DNA of 64,000 bases. Source: an uncultured Flavobacterium sp. Lineage in GTDB: Bacteria; Bacteroidota; Bacteroidia; Flavobacteriales; Flavobacteriaceae. Shown here in pieces: positions 9,495 to 33,258 of this stretch. Location: the NCBI RefSeq assembly GCF_963925185.1, contig NZ_CAWURC010000027.1, forward strand, positions 26,220 through 90,219, given 5' to 3'. Within the stretch, counting starts at the first letter, position 1. The number at the start of each line of letters is the position of its first letter. The notes under the pieces are model-generated. The model saw only the letters and a list, made by a program, of their open reading frames with translations, was not told the DNA's origin and did not search any database. Both the position numbers and the translations under genes were made by a program.

Positions 9495-9633
9495 ATTTAC
9501 TATTTAATTAGCCAAATTAGTTAATATTGAAATTTATTTATGATAAACATTTGTTAATTTAATGTTAGTAATTTTCAAGCACTCAAATACAAAATTAGAA
9601 TAAGAATTTGTACTATAATACTGCTTATTCCTT

Positions 9634-10631
9634 ACCCGTTGGGTGTAATTAAATTATTTGATTTTTAATATTGTTTATTGGTCTATCAAAAATGAATTTA
9701 TTTACATATTGAACCAATGTTAATGCTGTTATTTTTGCTAATATTCTTGTTTTAAATCCTTCAAAAGATTTAGCGTAATTGTTTCTAATTTTGAACTGGT
9801 CACATAATTGAGAAAATAATGTTTCAATTCTTTTTCTTGATTTTCTAAAGATATAAGCCTGTGGTTTATAATCTATTTGATTTTTTCTTTTTGGTGGTTC
9901 TAATTTGATATTTACCGTTTGAAACAAATCCAATTGAATAGTTTTTGATAAATAACCTCTATCTCCAAGTAGCACACAATCAGACATTTGTTGTTTTATA
10001 TTCTTCAAAAAATGTACATCATGAACTTCTGCTTTTGTAATATCTAATGAATGAAAAATACCTGATACAGAACAAACTCCGTGAAGTTTATAACCATAAA
10101 ACCAAGTGTTTTGTGAAGCACAAAATCCTTTTGATGGAGCTGCCTCAAACTCTTTTTTACAGATTTTAATTCTTCGATGAAGAGCAAATTTGCAAATCTC
10201 TAAGGGCATACTATCAACAATAAAGTAATCTTCAAACTCCAAAAAACGAGATGCTAATTTTAACCTAACTTCTTCTGAAAATAAAAATAATTTTCTTCTT
10301 CTTTTATTGAACTGACTTCGCTCAATTAAATTTGGAATTTGACTAATGTCTACCAATTTAAACAATGAGTTTTCACTGTCAATCGACATAAATTCAGCTG
10401 TCAAACTCAATGCAATAATCTCTAAATCAGACATTTTGTTCTTTCGACCAACTCCAGATTTATATTCTAATTCACAATTCAAAGAACTTATAACTTCTAA
10501 AACTCTTAAATAATTTTTAACTATATTTGTCATAAATATTGGTTGTTTAGCGACTTCAAGATACTGAATTTCAGTGTCTTGACCAACATTTAATCAATTT
10601 ATTTTACTTTAAATAATTGCACCCAACGGGT
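9634..10631 (-). mobile_element. IS982-family insertion sequence, 998 bp
   Basis: IR ACCCGTTGGGTGTAATTA (9634-9651) vs TAATTGCACCCAACGGGT (10614-10631), 17/18 match; 9-bp direct repeat TTATTCCTT at 9625-9633 and 10632-10640. Confidence 0.95.
9649..10533 (-). CDS. IS982-family DDE transposase
   Basis: 294 aa intact; IVDSMP, GYKLH, LGDRGY, RKRIETLFSQL carry the D-D-E triad. Confidence 0.92.
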   Translation of the reverse strand: MTNIVKNYLRVLEVISSLNCELEYKSGVGRKNKMSDLEIIALSLTAEFMSIDSENSLFKLVDISQIPNLIERSQFNKRRRKLFLFSEEVRLKLASRFLEFEDYFIVDSMPLEICKFALHRRIKICKKEFEAAPSKGFCASQNTWFYGYKLHGVCSVSGIFHSLDITKAEVHDVHFLKNIKQQMSDCVLLGDRGYLSKTIQLDLFQTVNIKLEPPKRKNQIDYKPQAYIFRKSRKRIETLFSQLCDQFKIRNNYAKSFEGFKTRILAKITALTLVQYVNKFIFDRPINNIKNQII

Positions 10632-10703
10632 TTATTCCTTATAAAATTTTAAAAAAAACTAAAATAGCAGTGCTTAAAATAATTCAAATTCAAATTATCG
10701 ATT

Positions 10704-10834
10704 TCAAAAAACCAATAACCCAAACTCCATTAAAGTATTCACGGGTTTCGAATACCAAAACAATTCAAAATCTTTAAATCACTTTCGAAATGAGTTTTAA
10801 ACTCCTGAAAAAGAGAAGTTTTAGTATTTGAAAT
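10704..10834 (-). pseudogene. Orphan 3' end (about 43 codons) of the B12 radical SAM gene
   Basis: Reads ISNTKTSLFQEFKTHFESDL-(frameshift)-DFELFWYSKPVNTLMEFGLLVF*, versus VSNAKTYSFQEIKSDFETHLEDFELFWYSKPVNTLMEFGLLVF* at 14588-14720. Confidence 0.9.
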
Positions 10835-10843
10835 CTATAAATT

Positions 10844-11359
10844 TTAAAATTTAAACTCCAATTGAGTATTAGGGTTGTTTAATCTTCCACTTTTGCGTTT
10901 GCCAAAAAGTTCAACATGAACGATATTCATTTGATCTTCGAAGATGTCACAAAGAATACTGTCCTCTATTTTTATTTTTTCAAAAGGTTTTGCAGGTTCT
11001 ATTTCTAAATATACATTGACAACCTCTCGATCAATTTCGAAACCTATATACTTTTGGGATTGTTTTTTATCGTTTATTGCGATTTGCAAATGATTTTGCA
11101 TGTATTGCTTTATAATAAAATCCATTTGGTTGTGCAAATCAGGAGCAGTAAAATCAATTTTGGTTTTGTTTTGTTTGCGCAGTGCATTTTCAAAATCATC
11201 GGCATATAATTTACATAAAATCTCAATACTTTTTTGTTTGCTATTAAATGATATTTCTGCAGTACTTACGTGTAATGGATGAATATCAAAAGTGTTAAAA
11301 GAATGGAAACCAAATAATAAAATGAAGAATAATACTGTTTTTGAGTATAAAAAATACAT
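10844..11359 (-). CDS. DUF6702 family exported protein
   Basis: Signal peptide followed by HPLHVS; ADDFENALR, FEDQMNIVHV. Confidence 0.8.
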   Translation of the reverse strand: MYFLYSKTVLFFILLFGFHSFNTFDIHPLHVSTAEISFNSKQKSIEILCKLYADDFENALRKQNKTKIDFTAPDLHNQMDFIIKQYMQNHLQIAINDKKQSQKYIGFEIDREVVNVYLEIEPAKPFEKIKIEDSILCDIFEDQMNIVHVELFGKRKSGRLNNPNTQLEFKF

Positions 11360-11447
11360 GATAAATAATATTTTTGCTAAATGAATAAAAATACAATACT
11401 TTTATCGTCCAAAAGTAATAAATGCTAGCCAATAAAACAGAACTTAA

Positions 11448-12035
11448 ATGCCATTAGAAGATTTTTTATTTTATTTTCAAATAGGCTGGTCACACATGGT
11501 GAGCTTTGATGCACTCGATCATCAATTGTTTATTCTGAGTTTAATAGCCATATACACTCTTTCCGATATTAAAAAAATTATTATACTAGTTACCGCCTTC
11601 ACCATCGGTCATTCGATAACTTTAGTTTTAAGCGTAATAGATGTTTTTCGCTTGCAAAGCAACTGGGTTGAATTTTTAATCCCGTGTACTATTGTTATTA
11701 CAGCGTTGAGTAATATTACAAAAATAAAATATAGAACCAATTTAACTACTATTAAATACTTTTTAGCAATGGGTTTTGGATTAATCCACGGTATGGGTTT
11801 TGCAAATACCATACGCATGATTTTGGCTAAAGATCAAATTATTGGATGGGGTTTATTGGGTTTTAATATAGGTTTGGAAATTGGGCAATTATTTTTTGTA
11901 GCCTTTCTTCTATTTTTTACAACATTAGCTCTGAAATACTTTAAAGTAAAAAAATCCAATTGGGTATTATTTATTTCCGTTGCCATATTTAGTCTGTCAT
12001 TACAAATGGCTATAAAACGAATTCCTTTAAATTAA
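11448..12035 (+). CDS. HupE/UreJ family membrane protein
   Basis: DHQLFILSL, TAFTIGHSITL, FGLIHGMGFA, FNIGLEIGQ motifs. Confidence 0.9.
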   Translation: MPLEDFLFYFQIGWSHMVSFDALDHQLFILSLIAIYTLSDIKKIIILVTAFTIGHSITLVLSVIDVFRLQSNWVEFLIPCTIVITALSNITKIKYRTNLTTIKYFLAMGFGLIHGMGFANTIRMILAKDQIIGWGLLGFNIGLEIGQLFFVAFLLFFTTLALKYFKVKKSNWVLFISVAIFSLSLQMAIKRIPLN

Positions 12036-12056
12036 TAATAATAATAATAATAATAA
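12033..12056 (+). repeat. (TAA)8 microsatellite linking the hupE/ureJ stop to the M1 peptidase start
   Basis: taa x8; first unit is the stop codon, last A is the A of ATG 12056. Confidence 0.9.
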
Positions 12057-14443
12057 TGAACAAATTTACAAAAACAGTGTTGCTGATGACTTTTATAAGT
12101 CAGGTAACAATGGGACAAAATATTTTAAATAATCCGGGAAGTAATCACGGAAATAAGTTTGAACAGTTGGGAAGTATTTTAACAACTCCCAATGAACAGC
12201 GCACTGCAAGCGGGGCTCCTGGTGCTAAATACTGGCAACAACGCGCGGATTATAACATTAACTGCGAACTAGACGAAAAAAACTTGACTTTAATCGGAAG
12301 TGAAACTATTACTTACTTTAATAATTCACCTGATGTATTGACCTACGTTTGGTTACAACTTGATGAGAATGAGCACAACAATTTAAAAAATGCCAACTAT
12401 CAAAGCGCAAGTATTATGCCTACAAAAAGCAACAACACTTTGGTAGACAATAATTTAGAAAGTAAAAATCCAAACGACAACGGTGCGGGAATTAACATAG
12501 TAAATTTAACCGATGCTACAGGGAAAAAATTAAAATATACTATTAACAAAACAATGATGCGCATAGAAATTCCTGAATTAAAATCAGGACAGCAATTTGT
12601 TTTTAATGTTGATTGGAATTACAAAATTACAAATCGTATTGCAGATGGAGGCCGAGGAGGCTATGAGTTTTTTCCAAACGAAAAAAATTATATTTTTACA
12701 ATGTCACAATGGTATCCTCGCTTGTGTGTATACAGCGATTTTCAAGGATGGCAAAACCATCAATTTACTGGAAGAGGTGAATTTGCATTAACTTTTGGTA
12801 ATTTTAATGTAAAAATGACCGTTCCAGCCAATCATATCATTACTTCAACTGGGGAATGTACCAATTATAATACTGTATTAACACCCTTACAATTAGCTCG
12901 TTACCAAAAAGCACAAACAGCAACTACACCTTTAGAAGTAGTTACATTGGAAGAAGCCCTACTATCGGAACAAAACAATACAAATGCTAAAAAAACATGG
13001 ATATATAAAGCCAACAATGTGCGAGATTTTGCTTGGGGTTCTTCTCCAAAATTTGTCTGGGATGCTATGTCACTAAGCATAAAAGACAAAAAAGTAATGT
13101 GCATGAGTTTTTACGGCAAAGAAGCTTATGGCTTGTATCGGAAATTTTCGACTCATGCTGTTGCACATTCTATAAAAACATATTCCGATTTTACAATCCC
13201 ATATCCATATCCTGTAGCTCAAAGTGTAGAAGCAGCCAACGGCATGGAATATCCAATGATTTGTTTCAACTATGGCCGTACAAGTGCCGATGGCTCTTAT
13301 AGTGAAAGTACTAAAAACGGAATGCTTGGAGTAATAATACACGAAGTAGGCCACAACTTTTTTCCCATGATAATAAACAGTGACGAACGCCAATGGAGTT
13401 GGATGGATGAAGGATTGAACTCATTTGTAGAATATTTAACAGAAGAACTTTGGGACAATAAATTCCCAAGTAAAAAAGGTCCCGCTTATACAATTGTAAA
13501 TTACATGAAATTGCCTAAAGATCAATTAGAGCCAATTATGTCGAACTCTGAAAATATTATAAACTTCGGCCCTAATGCCTATTCTAAACCAGCTACTGGA
13601 TTGAATATATTGCGTGAAACAATTATGGGAAGAGAATTATTTGATTATGCTTTTAAAGAATACGCAAAACGTTGGGCGTTTAAACATCCTACACCTGCTG
13701 ATTTTTTTCGAACTATGGAAGACGCTAGCGCAGAAGATTTAGATTGGTTTTGGAGAGGATGGTTTTATGGTACAGATCCTTGTGACATTGCTCTAGAAAG
13801 TGTGAAATTTGCAAAAGCAGACTACACTCCCGTTGCTGTTGAAGATAAAAGAGATAGAAAGAACCGTAACGATAAACCAATGATTAATACTTTTGAAGAT
13901 ATTTCAAAAATTAGAAATCGCACTTCAAATGATTTGAAATTCTATACTGATATTGATTTAGATGCTAGAGATTTCTATTGGAAGTATGCACGTGGTTTGG
14001 TTGAAATAGATTCTACTTTGATACTGAAAAAAATGCCAGATCCTGAAATTTTACCCGCCGAAGAATTTACTGCCGAAGAAAAAGAAAAATATAGCAATAT
14101 GTTCTTTTATGAACTTAACTTTGCCAACAAAGGAGGATTAGTTATGCCAATTATCGTTGAATTCACATTTAAAGATGGAACACAATTAATTGATAAAATT
14201 CCTGCGCAAATTTGGAGGCTTAATGAATTAAAAACATCAAAATTTTATGTGCATGACAAAGAGGTGGCTTCTATAAAATTAGATCCAATGCTCGAAACCG
14301 CTGATATAGATGTAAATAATAATGTTTGGGGAGCAGATACAGTTGAGCCATCGAAATTACAAATGTTTAAAGCACGTAATGGAGCTAAACCGGCTAGAGG
14401 ACAATCAGCTGGACAAAACCCTATGCAGTTGGAAAAGAAATAG
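12056..14443 (+). CDS. Secreted M1 family zinc metallopeptidase
   Basis: Signal peptide; GMEYP, HEVGH-X18-E (WMDEG), AYSKP. Confidence 0.92.
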   Translation: MNKFTKTVLLMTFISQVTMGQNILNNPGSNHGNKFEQLGSILTTPNEQRTASGAPGAKYWQQRADYNINCELDEKNLTLIGSETITYFNNSPDVLTYVWLQLDENEHNNLKNANYQSASIMPTKSNNTLVDNNLESKNPNDNGAGINIVNLTDATGKKLKYTINKTMMRIEIPELKSGQQFVFNVDWNYKITNRIADGGRGGYEFFPNEKNYIFTMSQWYPRLCVYSDFQGWQNHQFTGRGEFALTFGNFNVKMTVPANHIITSTGECTNYNTVLTPLQLARYQKAQTATTPLEVVTLEEALLSEQNNTNAKKTWIYKANNVRDFAWGSSPKFVWDAMSLSIKDKKVMCMSFYGKEAYGLYRKFSTHAVAHSIKTYSDFTIPYPYPVAQSVEAANGMEYPMICFNYGRTSADGSYSESTKNGMLGVIIHEVGHNFFPMIINSDERQWSWMDEGLNSFVEYLTEELWDNKFPSKKGPAYTIVNYMKLPKDQLEPIMSNSENIINFGPNAYSKPATGLNILRETIMGRELFDYAFKEYAKRWAFKHPTPADFFRTMEDASAEDLDWFWRGWFYGTDPCDIALESVKFAKADYTPVAVEDKRDRKNRNDKPMINTFEDISKIRNRTSNDLKFYTDIDLDARDFYWKYARGLVEIDSTLILKKMPDPEILPAEEFTAEEKEKYSNMFFYELNFANKGGLVMPIIVEFTFKDGTQLIDKIPAQIWRLNELKTSKFYVHDKEVASIKLDPMLETADIDVNNNVWGADTVEPSKLQMFKARNGAKPARGQSAGQNPMQLEKK

Positions 14444-14466
14444 AAACACTATTTTTCTCATAAAAT

Positions 14467-14507
14467 AAAAAAGCTGTACAACATTTATTTATTGTACAGC
14501 TTTTTTT
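14467..14507. terminator. Bidirectional intrinsic terminator
   Basis: aaaaaagctgtacaa / ttgtacagcttttttt between convergent genes. Confidence 0.85.
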
Positions 14508-14587
14508 ATTTTCCTTTATTTATAACTTGAATCTAGCCTTCAATACTTATTCCATTTAAAAAAAGAGCAATGAATGATGCTTTTTTT

Positions 14588-16792
14588 TTAGAATACCAAT
14601 AACCCAAATTCCATTAAAGTATTCACGGGTTTCGAATACCAAAACAATTCGAAATCTTCTAAATGAGTTTCAAAGTCGGATTTAATTTCTTGAAAACTAT
14701 AGGTTTTAGCATTGGAAACCGAAATATTTTCGAGCATTTTTGCCAGCCATTCCCCTTCATTTTTGCCAGTTTGAATGGTAAAACTTTCTTTCTTGTCGTG
14801 AAAAGTCAAAGTCATCATTTCCCAAGAATTTCCTTTTTTGGATTTTGTGAAATATTCTACAATTGGCTTCCCTCCTAGCCAAATAATTTTTGCAGTTAGT
14901 TTTGTGTTAAATTCTTGATCTTCTTCCAAAGCATTGGCAATAAAATCGGGACGGACTTTTGTTTTCGGGATTTTAAAGTCGAACCATTCCTGCAATTCGT
15001 AGTCAAAGCAAATCCTGTGCATAAAATTGAATAAGGATTTCTTTAATCCAAAACTGAATTTGTCGTGATCAATTCCTGTTTTATCAACATAATTAATATC
15101 ATTATTTGCGAAAGTTCCAATAATTTCTGTTTCTTTCACAACACCAAATTTCTCCGGATGCATTCCCACAGGACTGTGCGCCGTCATCGCAAATTGATGC
15201 CAAAAACCCGATTGCAAAACGCCAATTTCAAACAATTGTCGCACAATTTCTAGACTGTCTATCGTTTCCTGAACCGTTTGCGTTGGATAACCATACATCA
15301 AATAAGCGTGAACCATAATTCCGGCATCGGTAAAATTTCTAGTGACTTTTGCTACTTGTTCCACCGTCACGCCTTTGTCAATTAGTTCCAATAATCGGTC
15401 CGAAGCGACTTCTAGCCCACCAGAAACGGCGATACATCCCGAAGCTTTAAGTAGTAAGCATAAATCTCTTGTGAAACTTTTCTCAAATCGAATGTTCGTC
15501 CACCAAGTGACTGATAATTTCCTGCGAAGAATTTCGAGTGCCAGAGCGCGCATCAAAGCTGGAGGAGCTGCTTCATCTACAAAATGAAACCCATTTTGTC
15601 CTGTTTGCGCTATCATTTCTTCCATTCGATCACACAGTAAATTGGCTGCAATAGGTTCGTAAATTTTAATATAATCTAATGAAATATCGCAAAATGTGCA
15701 TTTCCCCCAATAACAACCGTGAGCCATCGTGAGTTTGTTCCATCGACCGTCACTCCACATTCGGTGCATTGGATTCACAATTTCAATTACCGAAATGTAT
15801 TTATCCAAAAGCAAATCCGAATAATCGGGTGTACCAACTTCTGATTGTTTATAGTCACTTCTTGTGGAATTGTTTTTATAAACTACTTTGTCGTTTTCAA
15901 GAAGGAAAGTTCTCTTGAATTCCCCTTCGACAAGCTTAGGTTGACAAACGGCTTCGAATAATAGTTCTACTGGTAATTCGCCATCATCCAAAGTGATATA
16001 ATCGAAGAACTCGAAAACGCGAGCATCCGAAAGCGAACGCAATTCGGTATTAGGAAATCCGCCACCCATAGCAATTTTGATGTTTGCATGGTGTTTTTTT
16101 ACATATTGAGCAGAACGAAAAGCTGCATATAAATTCCCCGGGAAAGGAACCGAAATCAAGAATAATTCGGGTTGGATGGTTTCTATTTTTGCTGCCAGAA
16201 TCGAAATTAAAATATTGTCAATATAAGTAGGTTCTTCTTGTAAAGCCAAATATATTTCGTCGAAAGAATTAGCGCTTCTGCCCAAACGTTCCGCATACCG
16301 GCTGAACCCAAAATTAGCATCGACACAATCCACAATGAAATCCGAAATATCTTCGAGATATAGAGTGGCCAAATGTTTGGCTTTATCCTGCGTTCCCATT
16401 GTTCCGAAAGCCCAATCAGTATCTTCGAGTTGCGCAAACCGAGATGCTTCCGGCAAGAAATCTTCCTGACAAATTTGCAATGCCAATGTTGGATTTTTAC
16501 CTTGTAAAAAAGAAATAACACCATCAATCGTTTTAATATATTCGTCTTGTAAAGCTAAAATACGGGAGGAATTATCCGAAATTTCGGAAACTTCAAACTT
16601 TAAACTTTTAACTTTAAACAAATTTTGAAGTCCTTCCTTCGAAAATAATTTTAAAATCACTTCTATACCCAAATCTGCTTGTGTTGCTGGAATATTTTTG
16701 GTGTTCAGAAAACCTTTGATATAAGCCGTTGCCGGATACGGTGTATTCAGTTGGGTAAACGGTGGCGTGATTATAAATACGTTGGTTTTCAA
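14588..16792 (-). CDS. B12-binding domain radical SAM protein
   Basis: CYWGKCTFC (CX3CX2C), SVPFPGNL / GGGFPNT cobalamin-binding segment, FHFVDEA, GGLE. Confidence 0.9.
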   Translation of the reverse strand: MKTNVFIITPPFTQLNTPYPATAYIKGFLNTKNIPATQADLGIEVILKLFSKEGLQNLFKVKSLKFEVSEISDNSSRILALQDEYIKTIDGVISFLQGKNPTLALQICQEDFLPEASRFAQLEDTDWAFGTMGTQDKAKHLATLYLEDISDFIVDCVDANFGFSRYAERLGRSANSFDEIYLALQEEPTYIDNILISILAAKIETIQPELFLISVPFPGNLYAAFRSAQYVKKHHANIKIAMGGGFPNTELRSLSDARVFEFFDYITLDDGELPVELLFEAVCQPKLVEGEFKRTFLLENDKVVYKNNSTRSDYKQSEVGTPDYSDLLLDKYISVIEIVNPMHRMWSDGRWNKLTMAHGCYWGKCTFCDISLDYIKIYEPIAANLLCDRMEEMIAQTGQNGFHFVDEAAPPALMRALALEILRRKLSVTWWTNIRFEKSFTRDLCLLLKASGCIAVSGGLEVASDRLLELIDKGVTVEQVAKVTRNFTDAGIMVHAYLMYGYPTQTVQETIDSLEIVRQLFEIGVLQSGFWHQFAMTAHSPVGMHPEKFGVVKETEIIGTFANNDINYVDKTGIDHDKFSFGLKKSLFNFMHRICFDYELQEWFDFKIPKTKVRPDFIANALEEDQEFNTKLTAKIIWLGGKPIVEYFTKSKKGNSWEMMTLTFHDKKESFTIQTGKNEGEWLAKMLENISVSNAKTYSFQEIKSDFETHLEDFELFWYSKPVNTLMEFGLLVF
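16588..16619. repeat. Heptamer tandem repeat (AAACTTT-like x4.5) inside radical SAM CDS
   Basis: aaacttc aaacttt aaacttt taacttt aaac; encodes FKVKSLKFEVS. Confidence 0.75.
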
Positions 16793-16892
16793 AGGAAATT
16801 GATTTGTGCAAAAATAACTGCAAAAAATAACTTTATTGCTTTTATCATTAAAAACTATTCACTTGAACATTTTTAATTAATAAAGTATCGCA

Positions 16893-18176
16893 TCAAAACC
16901 GATGCTCCCTTTTTCTAATTGCCAAAAGTGCCAAGAAAGAAATCAACGCAGCAACCGATAAATAATACCCAACATATCCAATTCCGTACTTTGTCGCCAA
17001 CCAAATAGCAATCAATGGCGCAAAAGAAGCGCCCAATATTCCGGCCAAATTAAAGGTTAAGGACGCTCCAGAATACCGAACTTCAGTTGGAAACAACTCC
17101 GATAAAAAAGTTCCTAGTGGCCCATAAGTAAACCCCATTAATCCCATTCCTAAACAGATGAAAGTGGTAATTAAAAAAGTACTTCCGGAATCCATAAAAT
17201 AAGAGAAACTGAGACCAAACAGTCCAATTGCCAATGAAACGATCAACAAGACCAATCGTCTTCCGAAACGATCCGCAAATACTGCCGAAAGTGGAATTCC
17301 TATTACAAAAAACAAGATGGCAAATAGTTCAATAATCAAAAAATCACGACGGCTGAACCCTAAATGGGTTGTCGCCCAGCTCAAACTAAAAACGGTCATT
17401 AAATAAAAAGTGGCAAAGGTTGCGACTGCTGTAAAAGTTCCAAAAATCAATTCCCATTTATAGGATTTTAAAATAGTAAGCAAGGGAATTTGAACTTGCT
17501 TTTTAGCTTCTAAAGATTGCACAAAAGAAGGTGTCTCTGTAATTTTCATACGTATGTAAAAACCAACACCAACCAATAACGAACTAGCAATAAAAGGAAT
17601 TCTCCATCCAAAATCAAAAAACTGTTCGTTGGTCAATGTATCGCTCAACAAAAGGAAAGTTCCTCCAGAAAGCAACAAACCTATTGGCGCTCCAAGCTGA
17701 GGAAACATTCCGTACCAAGCTCGTTTTCCGGGAGGTGCGTTTTCAATTGCCAATAAAACGGCTCCACCCCATTCGCCACCCAAACCAAGACCTTGGCCAA
17801 AACGGCAAAGCATCAATAATAATGGTGCCGCTATTCCGATACTATGATAAGTAGGCAATAATCCAATACAAACTGTAGAAATCCCCATCGTCAATAACGC
17901 CGCAACAAGCGTAGCTTTTCTACCTATTTTGTCTCCAAAATGCCCAAAAACAGCCGAACCAATTGGTCTAGCGAAAAAGGCAATAGAAAAAGTGGCCAAG
18001 GATTCAATGGTGGAAGTGGTAGGATCAGATCCTGGAAAAAATAATTGCGGAAATACCAAAACCGCTGCATTTGCATAAATATAAAAATCAAAAAACTCGA
18101 TGGTAGTACCAATTAAACTGCCAAAAAGAACGTGTTTTAATGAGTTATTTTTTTTTGGATTGAGATTCTCTTTCAT
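16893..18176 (-). CDS. MFS transporter, metabolite:H+ symporter (ShiA-like) family
   Basis: GTTIEFFDFYIY, FGHFGDKIGRK, QGLGLGGEWGGA, ELFPTEVRYSG; likely start ATG 18176. Confidence 0.9.
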   Translation of the reverse strand: MKENLNPKKNNSLKHVLFGSLIGTTIEFFDFYIYANAAVLVFPQLFFPGSDPTTSTIESLATFSIAFFARPIGSAVFGHFGDKIGRKATLVAALLTMGISTVCIGLLPTYHSIGIAAPLLLMLCRFGQGLGLGGEWGGAVLLAIENAPPGKRAWYGMFPQLGAPIGLLLSGGTFLLLSDTLTNEQFFDFGWRIPFIASSLLVGVGFYIRMKITETPSFVQSLEAKKQVQIPLLTILKSYKWELIFGTFTAVATFATFYLMTVFSLSWATTHLGFSRRDFLIIELFAILFFVIGIPLSAVFADRFGRRLVLLIVSLAIGLFGLSFSYFMDSGSTFLITTFICLGMGLMGFTYGPLGTFLSELFPTEVRYSGASLTFNLAGILGASFAPLIAIWLATKYGIGYVGYYLSVAALISFLALLAIRKREHRF

Positions 18177-27870: not shown

Positions 27871-27971
27871 ATTGTTACCTATGAAGGTGGTTTTAAGTTT
27901 CTGCTTGCAAAATTAGTGATTATTTTTAGTTTTAACCACGAATTACACAAATATACATCTATTCAAATATC

Positions 27972-31704: not shown

Positions 31705-33258
31705 TTACCAAGGAATTGGATTGTAGTCTTTCAAAAACTTCCCACTCCAATGTTTTCCCGTATTGATTCCGTCAAACAAAGGATCCATTACCCGCGCTGC
31801 GCCATCTACAATATCCAATGGCGGTTGAAAATCTTGCTCTTCCTGTTTTCTTTTGGCTAATTCGGCAGGATCTTCGTCGGTTACCCAGCCCGTGTCAACG
31901 GCATTCATAAAAATTCCAGCTTTTGCCAAAGTTCCAGAGGAAGTGTGTGTCAGCATATTTAAGGCGGCTTTTGCCATATTTGTATGCGGATGGCGATCTT
32001 CCTTGAAAAAACGGTGAAATTTTCCTTCCATTGCCGATACGTTGATAATATGCTTTTTGCCTGTATTGTCTTTCTTCATTACTTCCGAAAGTCGGTTGCA
32101 CAAAACAAATGGCGCTACCGAATTGACCAATTGCACTTCGATCATTTCTGTGGTTTCAATTTGTCCCAAACGCAATCGCCAGCTGTTTGTTTTTCGCAAA
32201 TCGACTTGTTGTAAATCGGCATCTAATTCTCCTTTAGGGAAAACTTCGGTTGCCACCAATGCCTTATCGAATGAATATGGAATTTGAGATAATTTGGCGG
32301 AAGCCCGCAAACCAATTCCTGGTTCTGGTCCGTGCCAAGTTACCGGCATATTTTCATTGGATGAAAACCCAGTTGTCAAAACTTTTAATTCATCGAGACA
32401 ATTGGTATGATCCAATAATAAATTTTGAGCGTTTATTGGCAAAGCAGCTATTGGTTTTTCTTCGTTTTCCATTAAATGGGAATAAAATCCTGCTGGTCGT
32501 CGCACAGTTTGAGCCGCATTATTGATAAGAATATCCAAACGGTCGTATTTTTGTTCGATAAAATTGCAGAAAATTTCAACACTCGGAATATGTCTTAAAT
32601 CTAATCCGTGAATTTTAAGGCGGTGTCCCCAATCCATAAAATCGTCTTCTTTGGCAAATCGCAAAGCTGAATCTACTGGAAAACGAGTCGTTGCAATAAC
32701 GGTTGCACCGCCACGTAAAAGCATTAAAGAAATGTGGTGTCCAATTTTTAATCGAGAACCTGTTATTATTGCAATTTGCCCCTTTACATCGGCGGTTTGA
32801 AAACGTTTGACGTAATTAAAATCGCCACAATCGGAACACATGGTGTCATAAAAATGATGCATTTTAGTAAACTCCGTTTTGCATACATAACACTTTCTAG
32901 GAGATTCAAATTCTAATTGTTCTTTGTGTTCTATATCATTCGAACCTAATAATTTTGGAGCAACAAAAACGCTTGCTTCTCGGGCATAACGAATTCCGGT
33001 TTCTTTGCGAGCCGTTCTGTCTTTCTTTTCCTGTTTGCGTTTGGCGACCGCTTTTCCGCCCTTTTTTCTTTTAGCTAATTCATCACGATTAGGGCGCGAA
33101 AATTGTCCAGCCGCTTTGAGTAATTCGGTTCTTTGTTCTTTTGGGATGTCAAAAATTTGGTCTGTATCTGCGTTTAATTGTGCTAAAATAGCAATACATT
33201 GGTCAATATCTTCCGAGGTTATGGCGCTTTTATTCTCTATTCCTTCTGTCATCATCAT
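31705..33258 (-). CDS. Extended SDR family oxidoreductase with N-terminal CxxC...CxxC segment
   Basis: [10 protein letters not shown] Rossmann motif, [26 protein letters not shown]; CYVC/CSDC upstream. Confidence 0.85.

Follow-up and report, generated by a model that had tools for sequence, protein, structure and literature searches.

The 3' ends of protein-coding genes are a well-known class of integration targets. Islands which bring along a replacement for the gene end they displace include SCCmec in rlmH/orfX, ICESt1 and ICESt3 in fda and the mobilisable genomic islands (MGIs) of Vibrio in yicC. Three further systems are considered here: Campbell-type single-crossover integration of a circle, as in laboratory insertion-duplication mutagenesis; homology-facilitated illegitimate recombination in natural transformation, described for Acinetobacter and Streptococcus pneumoniae; and flexible genomic islands, which are hypervariable loci bordered by conserved genes. 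The locus analysed here lies in a stretch of 64,000 nucleotides (the window) from an uncultured Flavobacterium sp. (contig NZ_CAWURC010000027.1), in which the 3' end of a radical SAM gene (rSAM) occurs twice in direct orientation around a cassette of three genes. A first-pass annotation, made from the sequence alone, had proposed that the cassette entered via the rSAM 3' end and had considered a protein-coding target of this type unusual, which does not hold in view of the islands listed above. The repeat is interpreted here, with a probability of roughly 60%, as a joint formed by a homology-driven single crossover between two architectures of the locus, plus a further exchange within a conserved block of the rSAM tail. 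The locus represents an ordinary, known kind of rearrangement and a modestly interesting recurrent hotspot.

Like the 3'-end islands, this locus displayed direct repeats of a gene end flanking an insert, insert-borne sequence restoring the reading frame and an old gene end orphaned beside native DNA. In contrast to them, neither integrase, excisionase nor transfer gene was encountered in the insert or its vicinity, the cargo consisted of three housekeeping-type genes, the repeat boundaries varied between independent events and no excision was seen in assembled contigs of the same species. The resemblance to flexible genomic islands lay in synteny that was retained up to the rSAM stop codon and then gave way to 21 families of first downstream genes over 80 loci, and in divergent alleles of the downstream module; the difference lay in the tail of the border gene, which was repeatedly duplicated here, recording additive rather than replacement events. 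Hallmarks of integron cassettes were not displayed, as the three genes occupied both strands, the sole hairpin was a G+C-poor terminator and the borders were gene-tail repeats instead of attC sites.

The subject genome (G000) was that of a freshwater Flavobacterium, a draft of 2.25 Mb in 51 contigs with the locus inside a 100-kb contig. Positions within the rSAM tail are given as negative nucleotides (nt) counted from the stop codon. The last ~145 nt of the gene (~48 codons) were found intact at 14586-14730 and as an orphan at 10702-10846, both on the minus strand and with a start-to-start distance of 3,884 bp; a search of the whole 2.25-Mb genome retrieved these two copies and no more. Between them lay genes for DUF6702 (minus strand), HupE_UreJ_2 (plus strand) and an M1 zinc peptidase (plus strand). 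The duplicated gene end reported in the first-pass annotation was confirmed, albeit slightly longer, as were, by domain matches, the three intervening genes; its inventory had however overlooked an IS982 element at 9634-10631. The features of the locus, partly defined by comparison with metagenome contig L158 (see below), are the following.

14588..16792, minus strand: intact B12-binding-type rSAM, 734 amino acids (aa), predicted only as family (open reading frame (ORF); PF04055)
14586..14730, minus strand: repeat copy A, the working rSAM 3' end, last ~48 codons and stop TAA (repeat alignment)
10702..10774, minus strand: distal part of the orphan, conserved block and tail with stop TGA, 93% identical to copy A
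10775..10846, minus strand: proximal part of the orphan, frameshifted, 72% identical to copy A, adjoining the DUF6702 stop codon
10844..11359, minus strand: DUF6702 gene, left end of the cassette (ORF and domain match)
11448..12035, plus strand: HupE/UreJ_2 membrane protein, putative metal permease (ORF and domain match)
12056..14443, plus strand: exported M1 zinc peptidase, HEVGH-X18-E motif read from the translation (ORF and domain match)
14462..14511, no strand: bidirectional terminator situated between M1 and rSAM, which converge here; 20-bp inverted repeat containing T and A runs
10641..10703, minus strand: native rSAM-ankyrin spacer, part 1, colinear with L158
9634..10631, minus strand: IS982-family insertion sequence, transposase at 9649-10533, 18-bp inverted repeats
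9495..9633, minus strand: native rSAM-ankyrin spacer, part 2, reaching the ankyrin start codon, colinear with L158
6887..9494, minus strand: ankyrin, DOMON/T9SS, tRNA_anti-like and DUF5777 genes, which follow rSAM in the ancestral order

Contig L158 represented an empty site, in which rSAM was followed by a 204-nt spacer and then directly by the ankyrin operon. Its downstream products shared 90% (ankyrin), 77% (DOMON/T9SS), 80% (tRNA_anti-like) and 92% (DUF5777) aa identity with those of the window, and the same order, rSAM-ankyrin-DOMON-tRNA_anti-like-DUF5777, was found in L152, L212 and L214. Once IS982 and one copy of its target duplication were deleted, the orphan was colinear with L158, as were the following 202-nt spacer and the start of the ankyrin gene (76% identity of the spacer). 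A TGA stop codon was confined, among 14 tails, to those of the orphan and L158. The colinearity indicates that the orphan is the original end of an rSAM gene that formerly adjoined the ankyrin operon, displaced yet still in its native context, and not a local duplicate; the cassette is likewise supported as an insertion relative to the ancestral order. The four loci in which rSAM abuts the ankyrin operon without the cassette bear out the earlier suggestion that the old gene end was displaced.

An ancestral cassette combined with a locally duplicated rSAM tail had been named as the outcome that would overturn this suggestion. Such a duplication would agree with the presence of the cassette without any orphan in two other genomes (G127 and G330, see below), and with distal halves of the two copies that are mutually closest and have an M and an F residue in common. 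The alignment to L158 contradicts it, since the orphan stop and the next 202 nt match the rSAM-ankyrin junction found elsewhere and a copied tail would not have brought this spacer along; no duplicate of the spacer was retrieved elsewhere in the genome by a whole-genome search. Moreover, the proximal half of the orphan was not specifically related to the intact copy and the final codons were allele-specific, leaving this explanation very improbable.

G127 and G330 carried the cassette at an identical rSAM junction, with M1 convergent on rSAM and the same terminator (85-90% identity to the corresponding loci L145 and L146), and displayed no orphan. Homology to both amounted to 84% at the nt level and extended from the exact DUF6702 stop through the terminator into rSAM; the tail of copy A and its spacer toward M1 were of G127/G330 type. 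Downstream of the cassette both genomes harbored small haem-motif lipoprotein genes, unlike the subject genome, beyond which G127 displayed a divergent tRNA_anti-like/DUF5777 pair; the G330 contig stops short of that point. The empty site that matches their arrangement is of the type displayed by G004 and L159. The upstream genes of the subject genome were about equally similar to G127 and L158, whereas its downstream genes shared 42-62% aa identity with G127 versus 81-92% with L158. The subject genome thus joins the cassette junction of one architecture to the downstream block of the other, with the common rSAM tail present twice. Since G127 and G330 lack an orphan, the repeat is not simply the scar of the original acquisition; a vertical scar of that first event was rejected as a full account for this reason and because the distal half bears genome-specific residues.

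The haem-motif lipoproteins (L145 5089-5680 in G127; L146 4370-5730 in G330) took the place of ankyrin-DOMON and displayed CxxCH motifs and low-complexity Gly/Ser/Thr linkers. In G330 two such genes were arranged in tandem.

The earlier description of a near-identical distal and a diverged proximal part with a 1-nt deletion could be quantified. The distal 73 nt of the orphan displayed five substitutions relative to the intact copy (93% identity), all of them synonymous or stop-to-stop (chance of five random substitutions sparing both peptide and stop, P = 5e-4), versus 20 mismatches over 71 nt, a 1-nt gap and a frameshift in the proximal part (Fisher p = 8e-4 for the contrast). Homology of the proximal parts is nevertheless real, because 5,000 shuffles gave no global alignment score above 4, whereas the real one was 26 (z = 8.8). 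Three of the five distal differences fell in the final 9 nt (p = 0.015); here the end of the orphan, GTT TTT TGA, resembled that of L158 (GTT TTG TGA) and the intact end GTA TTC TAA that of G330 (GTA TTA TAA). Both copies encoded ...NTLMEFGLLVF, the M and final F of which were absent from ~110 orthologs (...TLREFGLLVL). Identity of the orphan proximal half was 0.68 to the intact copy and 0.66 (median) to 108 orthologs, none of which qualified as a donor above 77% (maximum 0.77); the intact proximal half reached 0.85 with its best ortholog.

As indicated by these values, the orphan is a mosaic of two halves that differ in history and meet at about -73. Because their divergence is silent only, the distal halves seem to have diverged inside working genes, that of the orphan having been idle only briefly, while the proximal half would either derive from another lineage or have been idle for long. 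Since the distal half displays the M and F of the intact copy and the proximal half has other ancestry, at least one further exchange appears to have occurred in the conserved block.

The mosaic also bears on a one-step homology-facilitated illegitimate recombination, in which a linear fragment of a cassette-bearing relative, anchored in rSAM, would have been joined to the recipient gene at -145 by its far end past DUF6702, the mirror event with an ankyrin-type donor being equally possible. Such an event would require neither a circle nor a non-host enzyme; the block in common with G127 and G330 begins, on its left, at the exact DUF6702 stop, as a fragment end would, a short A/T microhomology is present at the joint and rSAM itself is a lineage mosaic. 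Foreign DNA beside a conserved anchor gene, one homologous end combined with one microhomology joint, and the lack of mobile-element genes are likewise features of this process. However, it predicts an orphan of a single allele with equally distant or equally decayed halves, in place of the mosaic observed, and a later conversion would still be needed for the unique M and F, which are common to the distal half alone. Nor does it predict that all six orphans known from this gene (see below) are shorter than 200 nt. The mosaic pattern could not result from one illegitimate join, while crossover or conversion inside the conserved block can yield it, and the one-step event is regarded as decidedly improbable.

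The single-crossover joint favoured here would involve architecture 1, rSAM-terminator-M1-HupE-DUF6702 (G127 and G330), and architecture 2, rSAM-spacer-ankyrin operon (L158). Each of the two junction contexts exists separately elsewhere, in these same genomes and contig. Both architectures carry the rSAM tail, and the subject genome retains both tails: the working gene continues into the cassette-type tail and terminator, and the ankyrin-type tail is stranded behind DUF6702. Either a looped-out circle, composed of the cassette and a piece of rSAM tail, would have crossed once with the resident tail (Campbell-type insertion) or, equivalently, a crossover within an earlier orphan would have exchanged the downstream block. 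The anchor would be provided by the 70-nt conserved block encoding DFELFWYSKPVNTL..., in which an added exchange or conversion would have led to the shared M and F. We infer the circular intermediate, the order of events and a role of RecA from the arrangement.

Several traits of Campbell integration were displayed. The repeat ended at the stop codon in both copies, the contexts beyond were unrelated and the homology among orthologs ended at the same point. The orphan was composed of a foreign-like proximal half followed by native tail and spacer, and the intact copy of the gene body followed by G330-like tail, terminator and M1. As in Campbell integration, a homologous segment was thus duplicated directly around the insert and its copies were chimeric, with which the mosaic orphan and the allele-specific tails fit. 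Unlike in Campbell integration proper, the circle is deduced here, and the near-identity of the central block, including the M, calls for conversion or a further event.

A 49-aa tail query against 400 genomes sampled from the genus, combined with a scan of all fetched loci, uncovered same-strand tail orphans downstream of an intact rSAM at five further loci.

G173: tail duplication -195 to -25; cargo is the ankyrin-to-DUF5777 block; the orphan has the consensus tail and the working gene end is aberrant
G213: -142 to 0; cargo is a histidine-kinase-like gene; tail, 159-nt spacer and this gene make up a tandem unit of 2.8 kb
G280: -72 to 0; cargo is a kinase-like gene; adjoins the common acetyl-CoA carboxylase context
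L151 (Ga0184629_10000067), 12220-17576: about -125 to 0; 5.2-kb cargo cluster
L220 (Ga0182008_10001151), 12145-12871: -72 to the stop plus ~95 nt; no cargo; at least three further tandem units

In G173 and G280, for which the common context is known, the orphan was the copy preceding the gene that directly follows rSAM in other genomes. The L151 cargo, named from translations only, comprised an aldehyde dehydrogenase, a class-I amidotransferase, an iron alcohol dehydrogenase and a glutamine-synthetase-like gene, a cluster which resembles putrescine-utilisation genes; its intact and orphan tails were ~12% different, mostly silently (tallied by eye). One unit of the L220 array included an extra insert of ~110 nt, and the contig ended within the array. 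The outer boundaries of the repeats were variable (-195, -145, -142, about -125, -96 and -72), and in G173 identity ended at -25.

Among 98 orthologs, nt identity peaked at 0.76-0.80 between -75 and -46, was lowest (0.53-0.57) between -165 and -121 and became random (0.30) from the first base past the rSAM stop. The tail block thereby represents the last usable homology before a hypervariable region, so that joints are predicted to cluster at about -72. Within the conserved block, FEL and YSK codons gave rise to an 8-bp inverted repeat, TTTCGAAT-N9-ATTCGAAA, at 14618-14642 (minus strand) and 10734-10758. Its F and S codons paired in some orthologs (TTC/TCG, TTT/TCA) and not in others; it could be a coding coincidence or a DNA or RNA site.

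These data allow consideration of a site-specific integrative cassette, moved by a tyrosine or serine recombinase that acted in trans or was lost, with its att site in the conserved tail block; attP would supply the tail that replaces the old one (P') together with a proximal arm (P) that is untranslated and has decayed. The two copies indeed resemble attL and attR, as a near-identical core of ~62 nt is bordered on both sides by divergent arms and the target gene is restored, the 734-aa rSAM ending in cassette-side sequence. The silent-only tail fits a P' under coding selection and the decayed proximal arm an untranslated P; the core contains the inverted repeat, and varied cargo is found at one gene. 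Yet none of the six inserts displayed an integrase within or beside it. In the window, the ORFs between or beside the tail copies corresponded to DUF6702, HupE_UreJ_2, Peptidase_M1 and the IS982 transposase, in agreement with the first-pass statement that no integrase remains there, and ORF inspection of G173, G213, G280 and L151 uncovered no integrase-like ORF in the inserts. Genome-wide, PF00589 matched only two proteins, of 307 and 309 aa, which are Xer-sized tyrosine recombinases. The variation of the outer boundaries from -195 to -72 and the end of identity at -25 in G173 also weigh against such a cassette, as do G127 and G330, which harbor the three genes without an attR-like remnant; the FEL...YSK codons dictate the inverted repeat, whose arms pair in some orthologs only, and G213 and L220 resemble tandem duplications rather than integrations. 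Taken together, variable outer boundaries, varied cargo, the lack of integrase and the position at the last homology favour homology-driven recombination over a site-specific element, which is considered unlikely; an integrase was probably not involved. The insertion footprint that the first-pass annotation placed at the rSAM tail therefore stands, although not as the scar of the original acquisition and with homology rather than site-specificity as the favoured cause.

Several observations weigh against the single-crossover joint. The boundary at -72 +/- 2 recurred at three independent loci (inner break of G000, G280 and L220), which a site-specific enzyme would explain as well. All six orphans measured at most 195 nt, which homology models explain by survivorship only; insertions with long repeats should be deleted fast, and this may account for the restriction to orphans below 200 nt. 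The presence on both copies of an M and an F found in none of the orthologs was unexpected from a simple reciprocal crossover between foreign and native sequence, hence the model requires an additional step, either heteroduplex repair or gene conversion spanning ~60 nt, or else another exchange involving a conspecific allele; moreover, the F codons differ (TTT versus TTC) and are located in a part that otherwise looks allele-specific. Campbell integration would have left copies differing at every parental difference, whereas the central ~60 nt were near-identical and the M was shared. Neither a circle, an empty site, a polymorphism nor an IS-free allele was encountered in conspecific contigs from at least eight samples. 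Finally, natural transformation or another DNA entry route is undocumented for this organism.

These conspecific contigs, assembled independently, displayed the same layout (cassette, orphan and IS) at 99.4-100% identity; two of them, 197 kb and 80 kb long, matched at 99.9%. A chimeric contig or other assembly artefact, for which only the general risk of a draft genome in many contigs could be invoked, is excluded, because the repeat is short and diverged (merely 73 nt at 93%), lies well inside its contig and recurs in the same layout in all these samples; the first-pass annotation had already deemed it unlikely. The assembled conspecific contigs displayed no evidence of present-day mobility.

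The cassette is foreign to the genus and derives from a Sphingobacteriaceae/Pedobacter-like source. The closest homologs of its M1 peptidase outside the genus belonged to Sphingobacteriaceae and Pedobacter (81, 77 and 72% aa identity), and no Flavobacterium label was found among the best 80 M1 loci. In a maximum-likelihood tree the M1 proteins of G000, G127 and G330 formed a clade nested in Pedobacter/Sphingobacteriaceae with support of 100/99, so that the M1 phylogeny, suggested earlier as a check, indicated a foreign origin. Homology at the nt level to the Sphingobacteriaceae module extended from inside DUF6702 up to the exact M1 stop. Among the 400 genus genomes, close copies of the cassette M1 were restricted to G127 (88%) and G330 (87%), the usual M1 homolog of the genus being ~50% identical and devoid of an adjacent HupE in the nine examples checked. 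None of 20 genus genomes displayed the cassette within 9 kb of rSAM, while upstream synteny (bshC-MFS-rSAM) was retained in about a dozen of them. Base composition was tried as a marker of origin and proved uninformative, with a G+C content of 0.27-0.36 in the cassette versus 0.30-0.40 in its surroundings; since the two are close, the original transfer would be old.

The order of the trio, DUF6702 (minus), HupE (plus), M1 (plus), was conserved across Bacteroidota. It was encountered (loci L053-L132) in Sphingobacteriales, Chitinophagales, Weeksellaceae and others, some genomes displaying two tandem M1 genes. As a guess, the trio may supply metal to the peptidase.

The IS982 element was located 70 nt downstream of the orphan, within the rSAM-ankyrin spacer, with identical 9-bp target duplications, TTATTCCTT, on its two sides (9625-9633 and 10632-10640). 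It was present as a single copy genome-wide and in all conspecific metagenome contigs reaching the site, and constitutes a simple later insertion into the native spacer. Insertion of the cassette by an IS was rejected, as IS982 lies outside the cassette, has its own intact 9-bp duplication and has no second copy in the genome. A composite transposon, with IS copies or ends at both cassette borders, was likewise not encountered, IS982 being the only IS there.

Orthologs of rSAM were present in most genus genomes at 62-88% aa identity, and B12-rSAM methyltransferase families of NCBIfam matched the protein weakly, far under their cut-offs. Along the gene (14588-16792), identity to various relatives swung from ~60% to ~95%; with L158 it amounted to 95% at codons 401-460, yet to 58-59% at codons 41-100. 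Sliding windows of identity along rSAM confirmed this mosaic and uncovered no clear donor tract or internal breakpoint. In L163 a second rSAM copy with the same N-terminal residues was found ~11 kb downstream, extending past the end of the retrieved sequence; it was taken as a tandem duplication or assembly repeat and not used.

A similar footprint was displayed outside the window by contig C12, where a 59-nt direct repeat (95% identical; 27889-27947 and 31774-31832) spanned the promoter and the first 20 nt of a gene, the ATG being changed to AGG in the orphan copy. It bracketed a 3.9-kb island with a membrane protein, unknown genes and a possible transposase remnant.

A literature search retrieved no paper on this rSAM tail as a target. 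Tentatively, the conserved 70-nt tail may be a genus-wide docking site that operates without a recombinase; alternatively, an unrecognised trans-acting recombinase would use the palindromic FEL...YSK-coding site. Under docking, blocks once downstream of rSAM would loop out with a copy of the tail and, through homologous crossover, dock behind rSAM in another strain. If true, cargo would accumulate additively and be excisable via the tail repeats, in a RecA-driven analogue of an integration hotspot.

The locus provides a clean, datable case in which a small metabolic module passed from Sphingobacteriaceae to Flavobacterium and was then shuffled between architectures without mobile-element genes. 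Homologous recombination between the 73-nt direct repeats could delete the cassette and would bring back an uninterrupted rSAM-ankyrin junction, and the scar of the orphan tail tells which side is native. For annotation, a short orphan gene end near an island need not mean that an integrase was lost. Scars at one gene end in 1-3% of the genus genomes, with varied cargo, point to a natural recombination hotspot, which could be used for studying integrase-free gene gain in environmental Bacteroidota.

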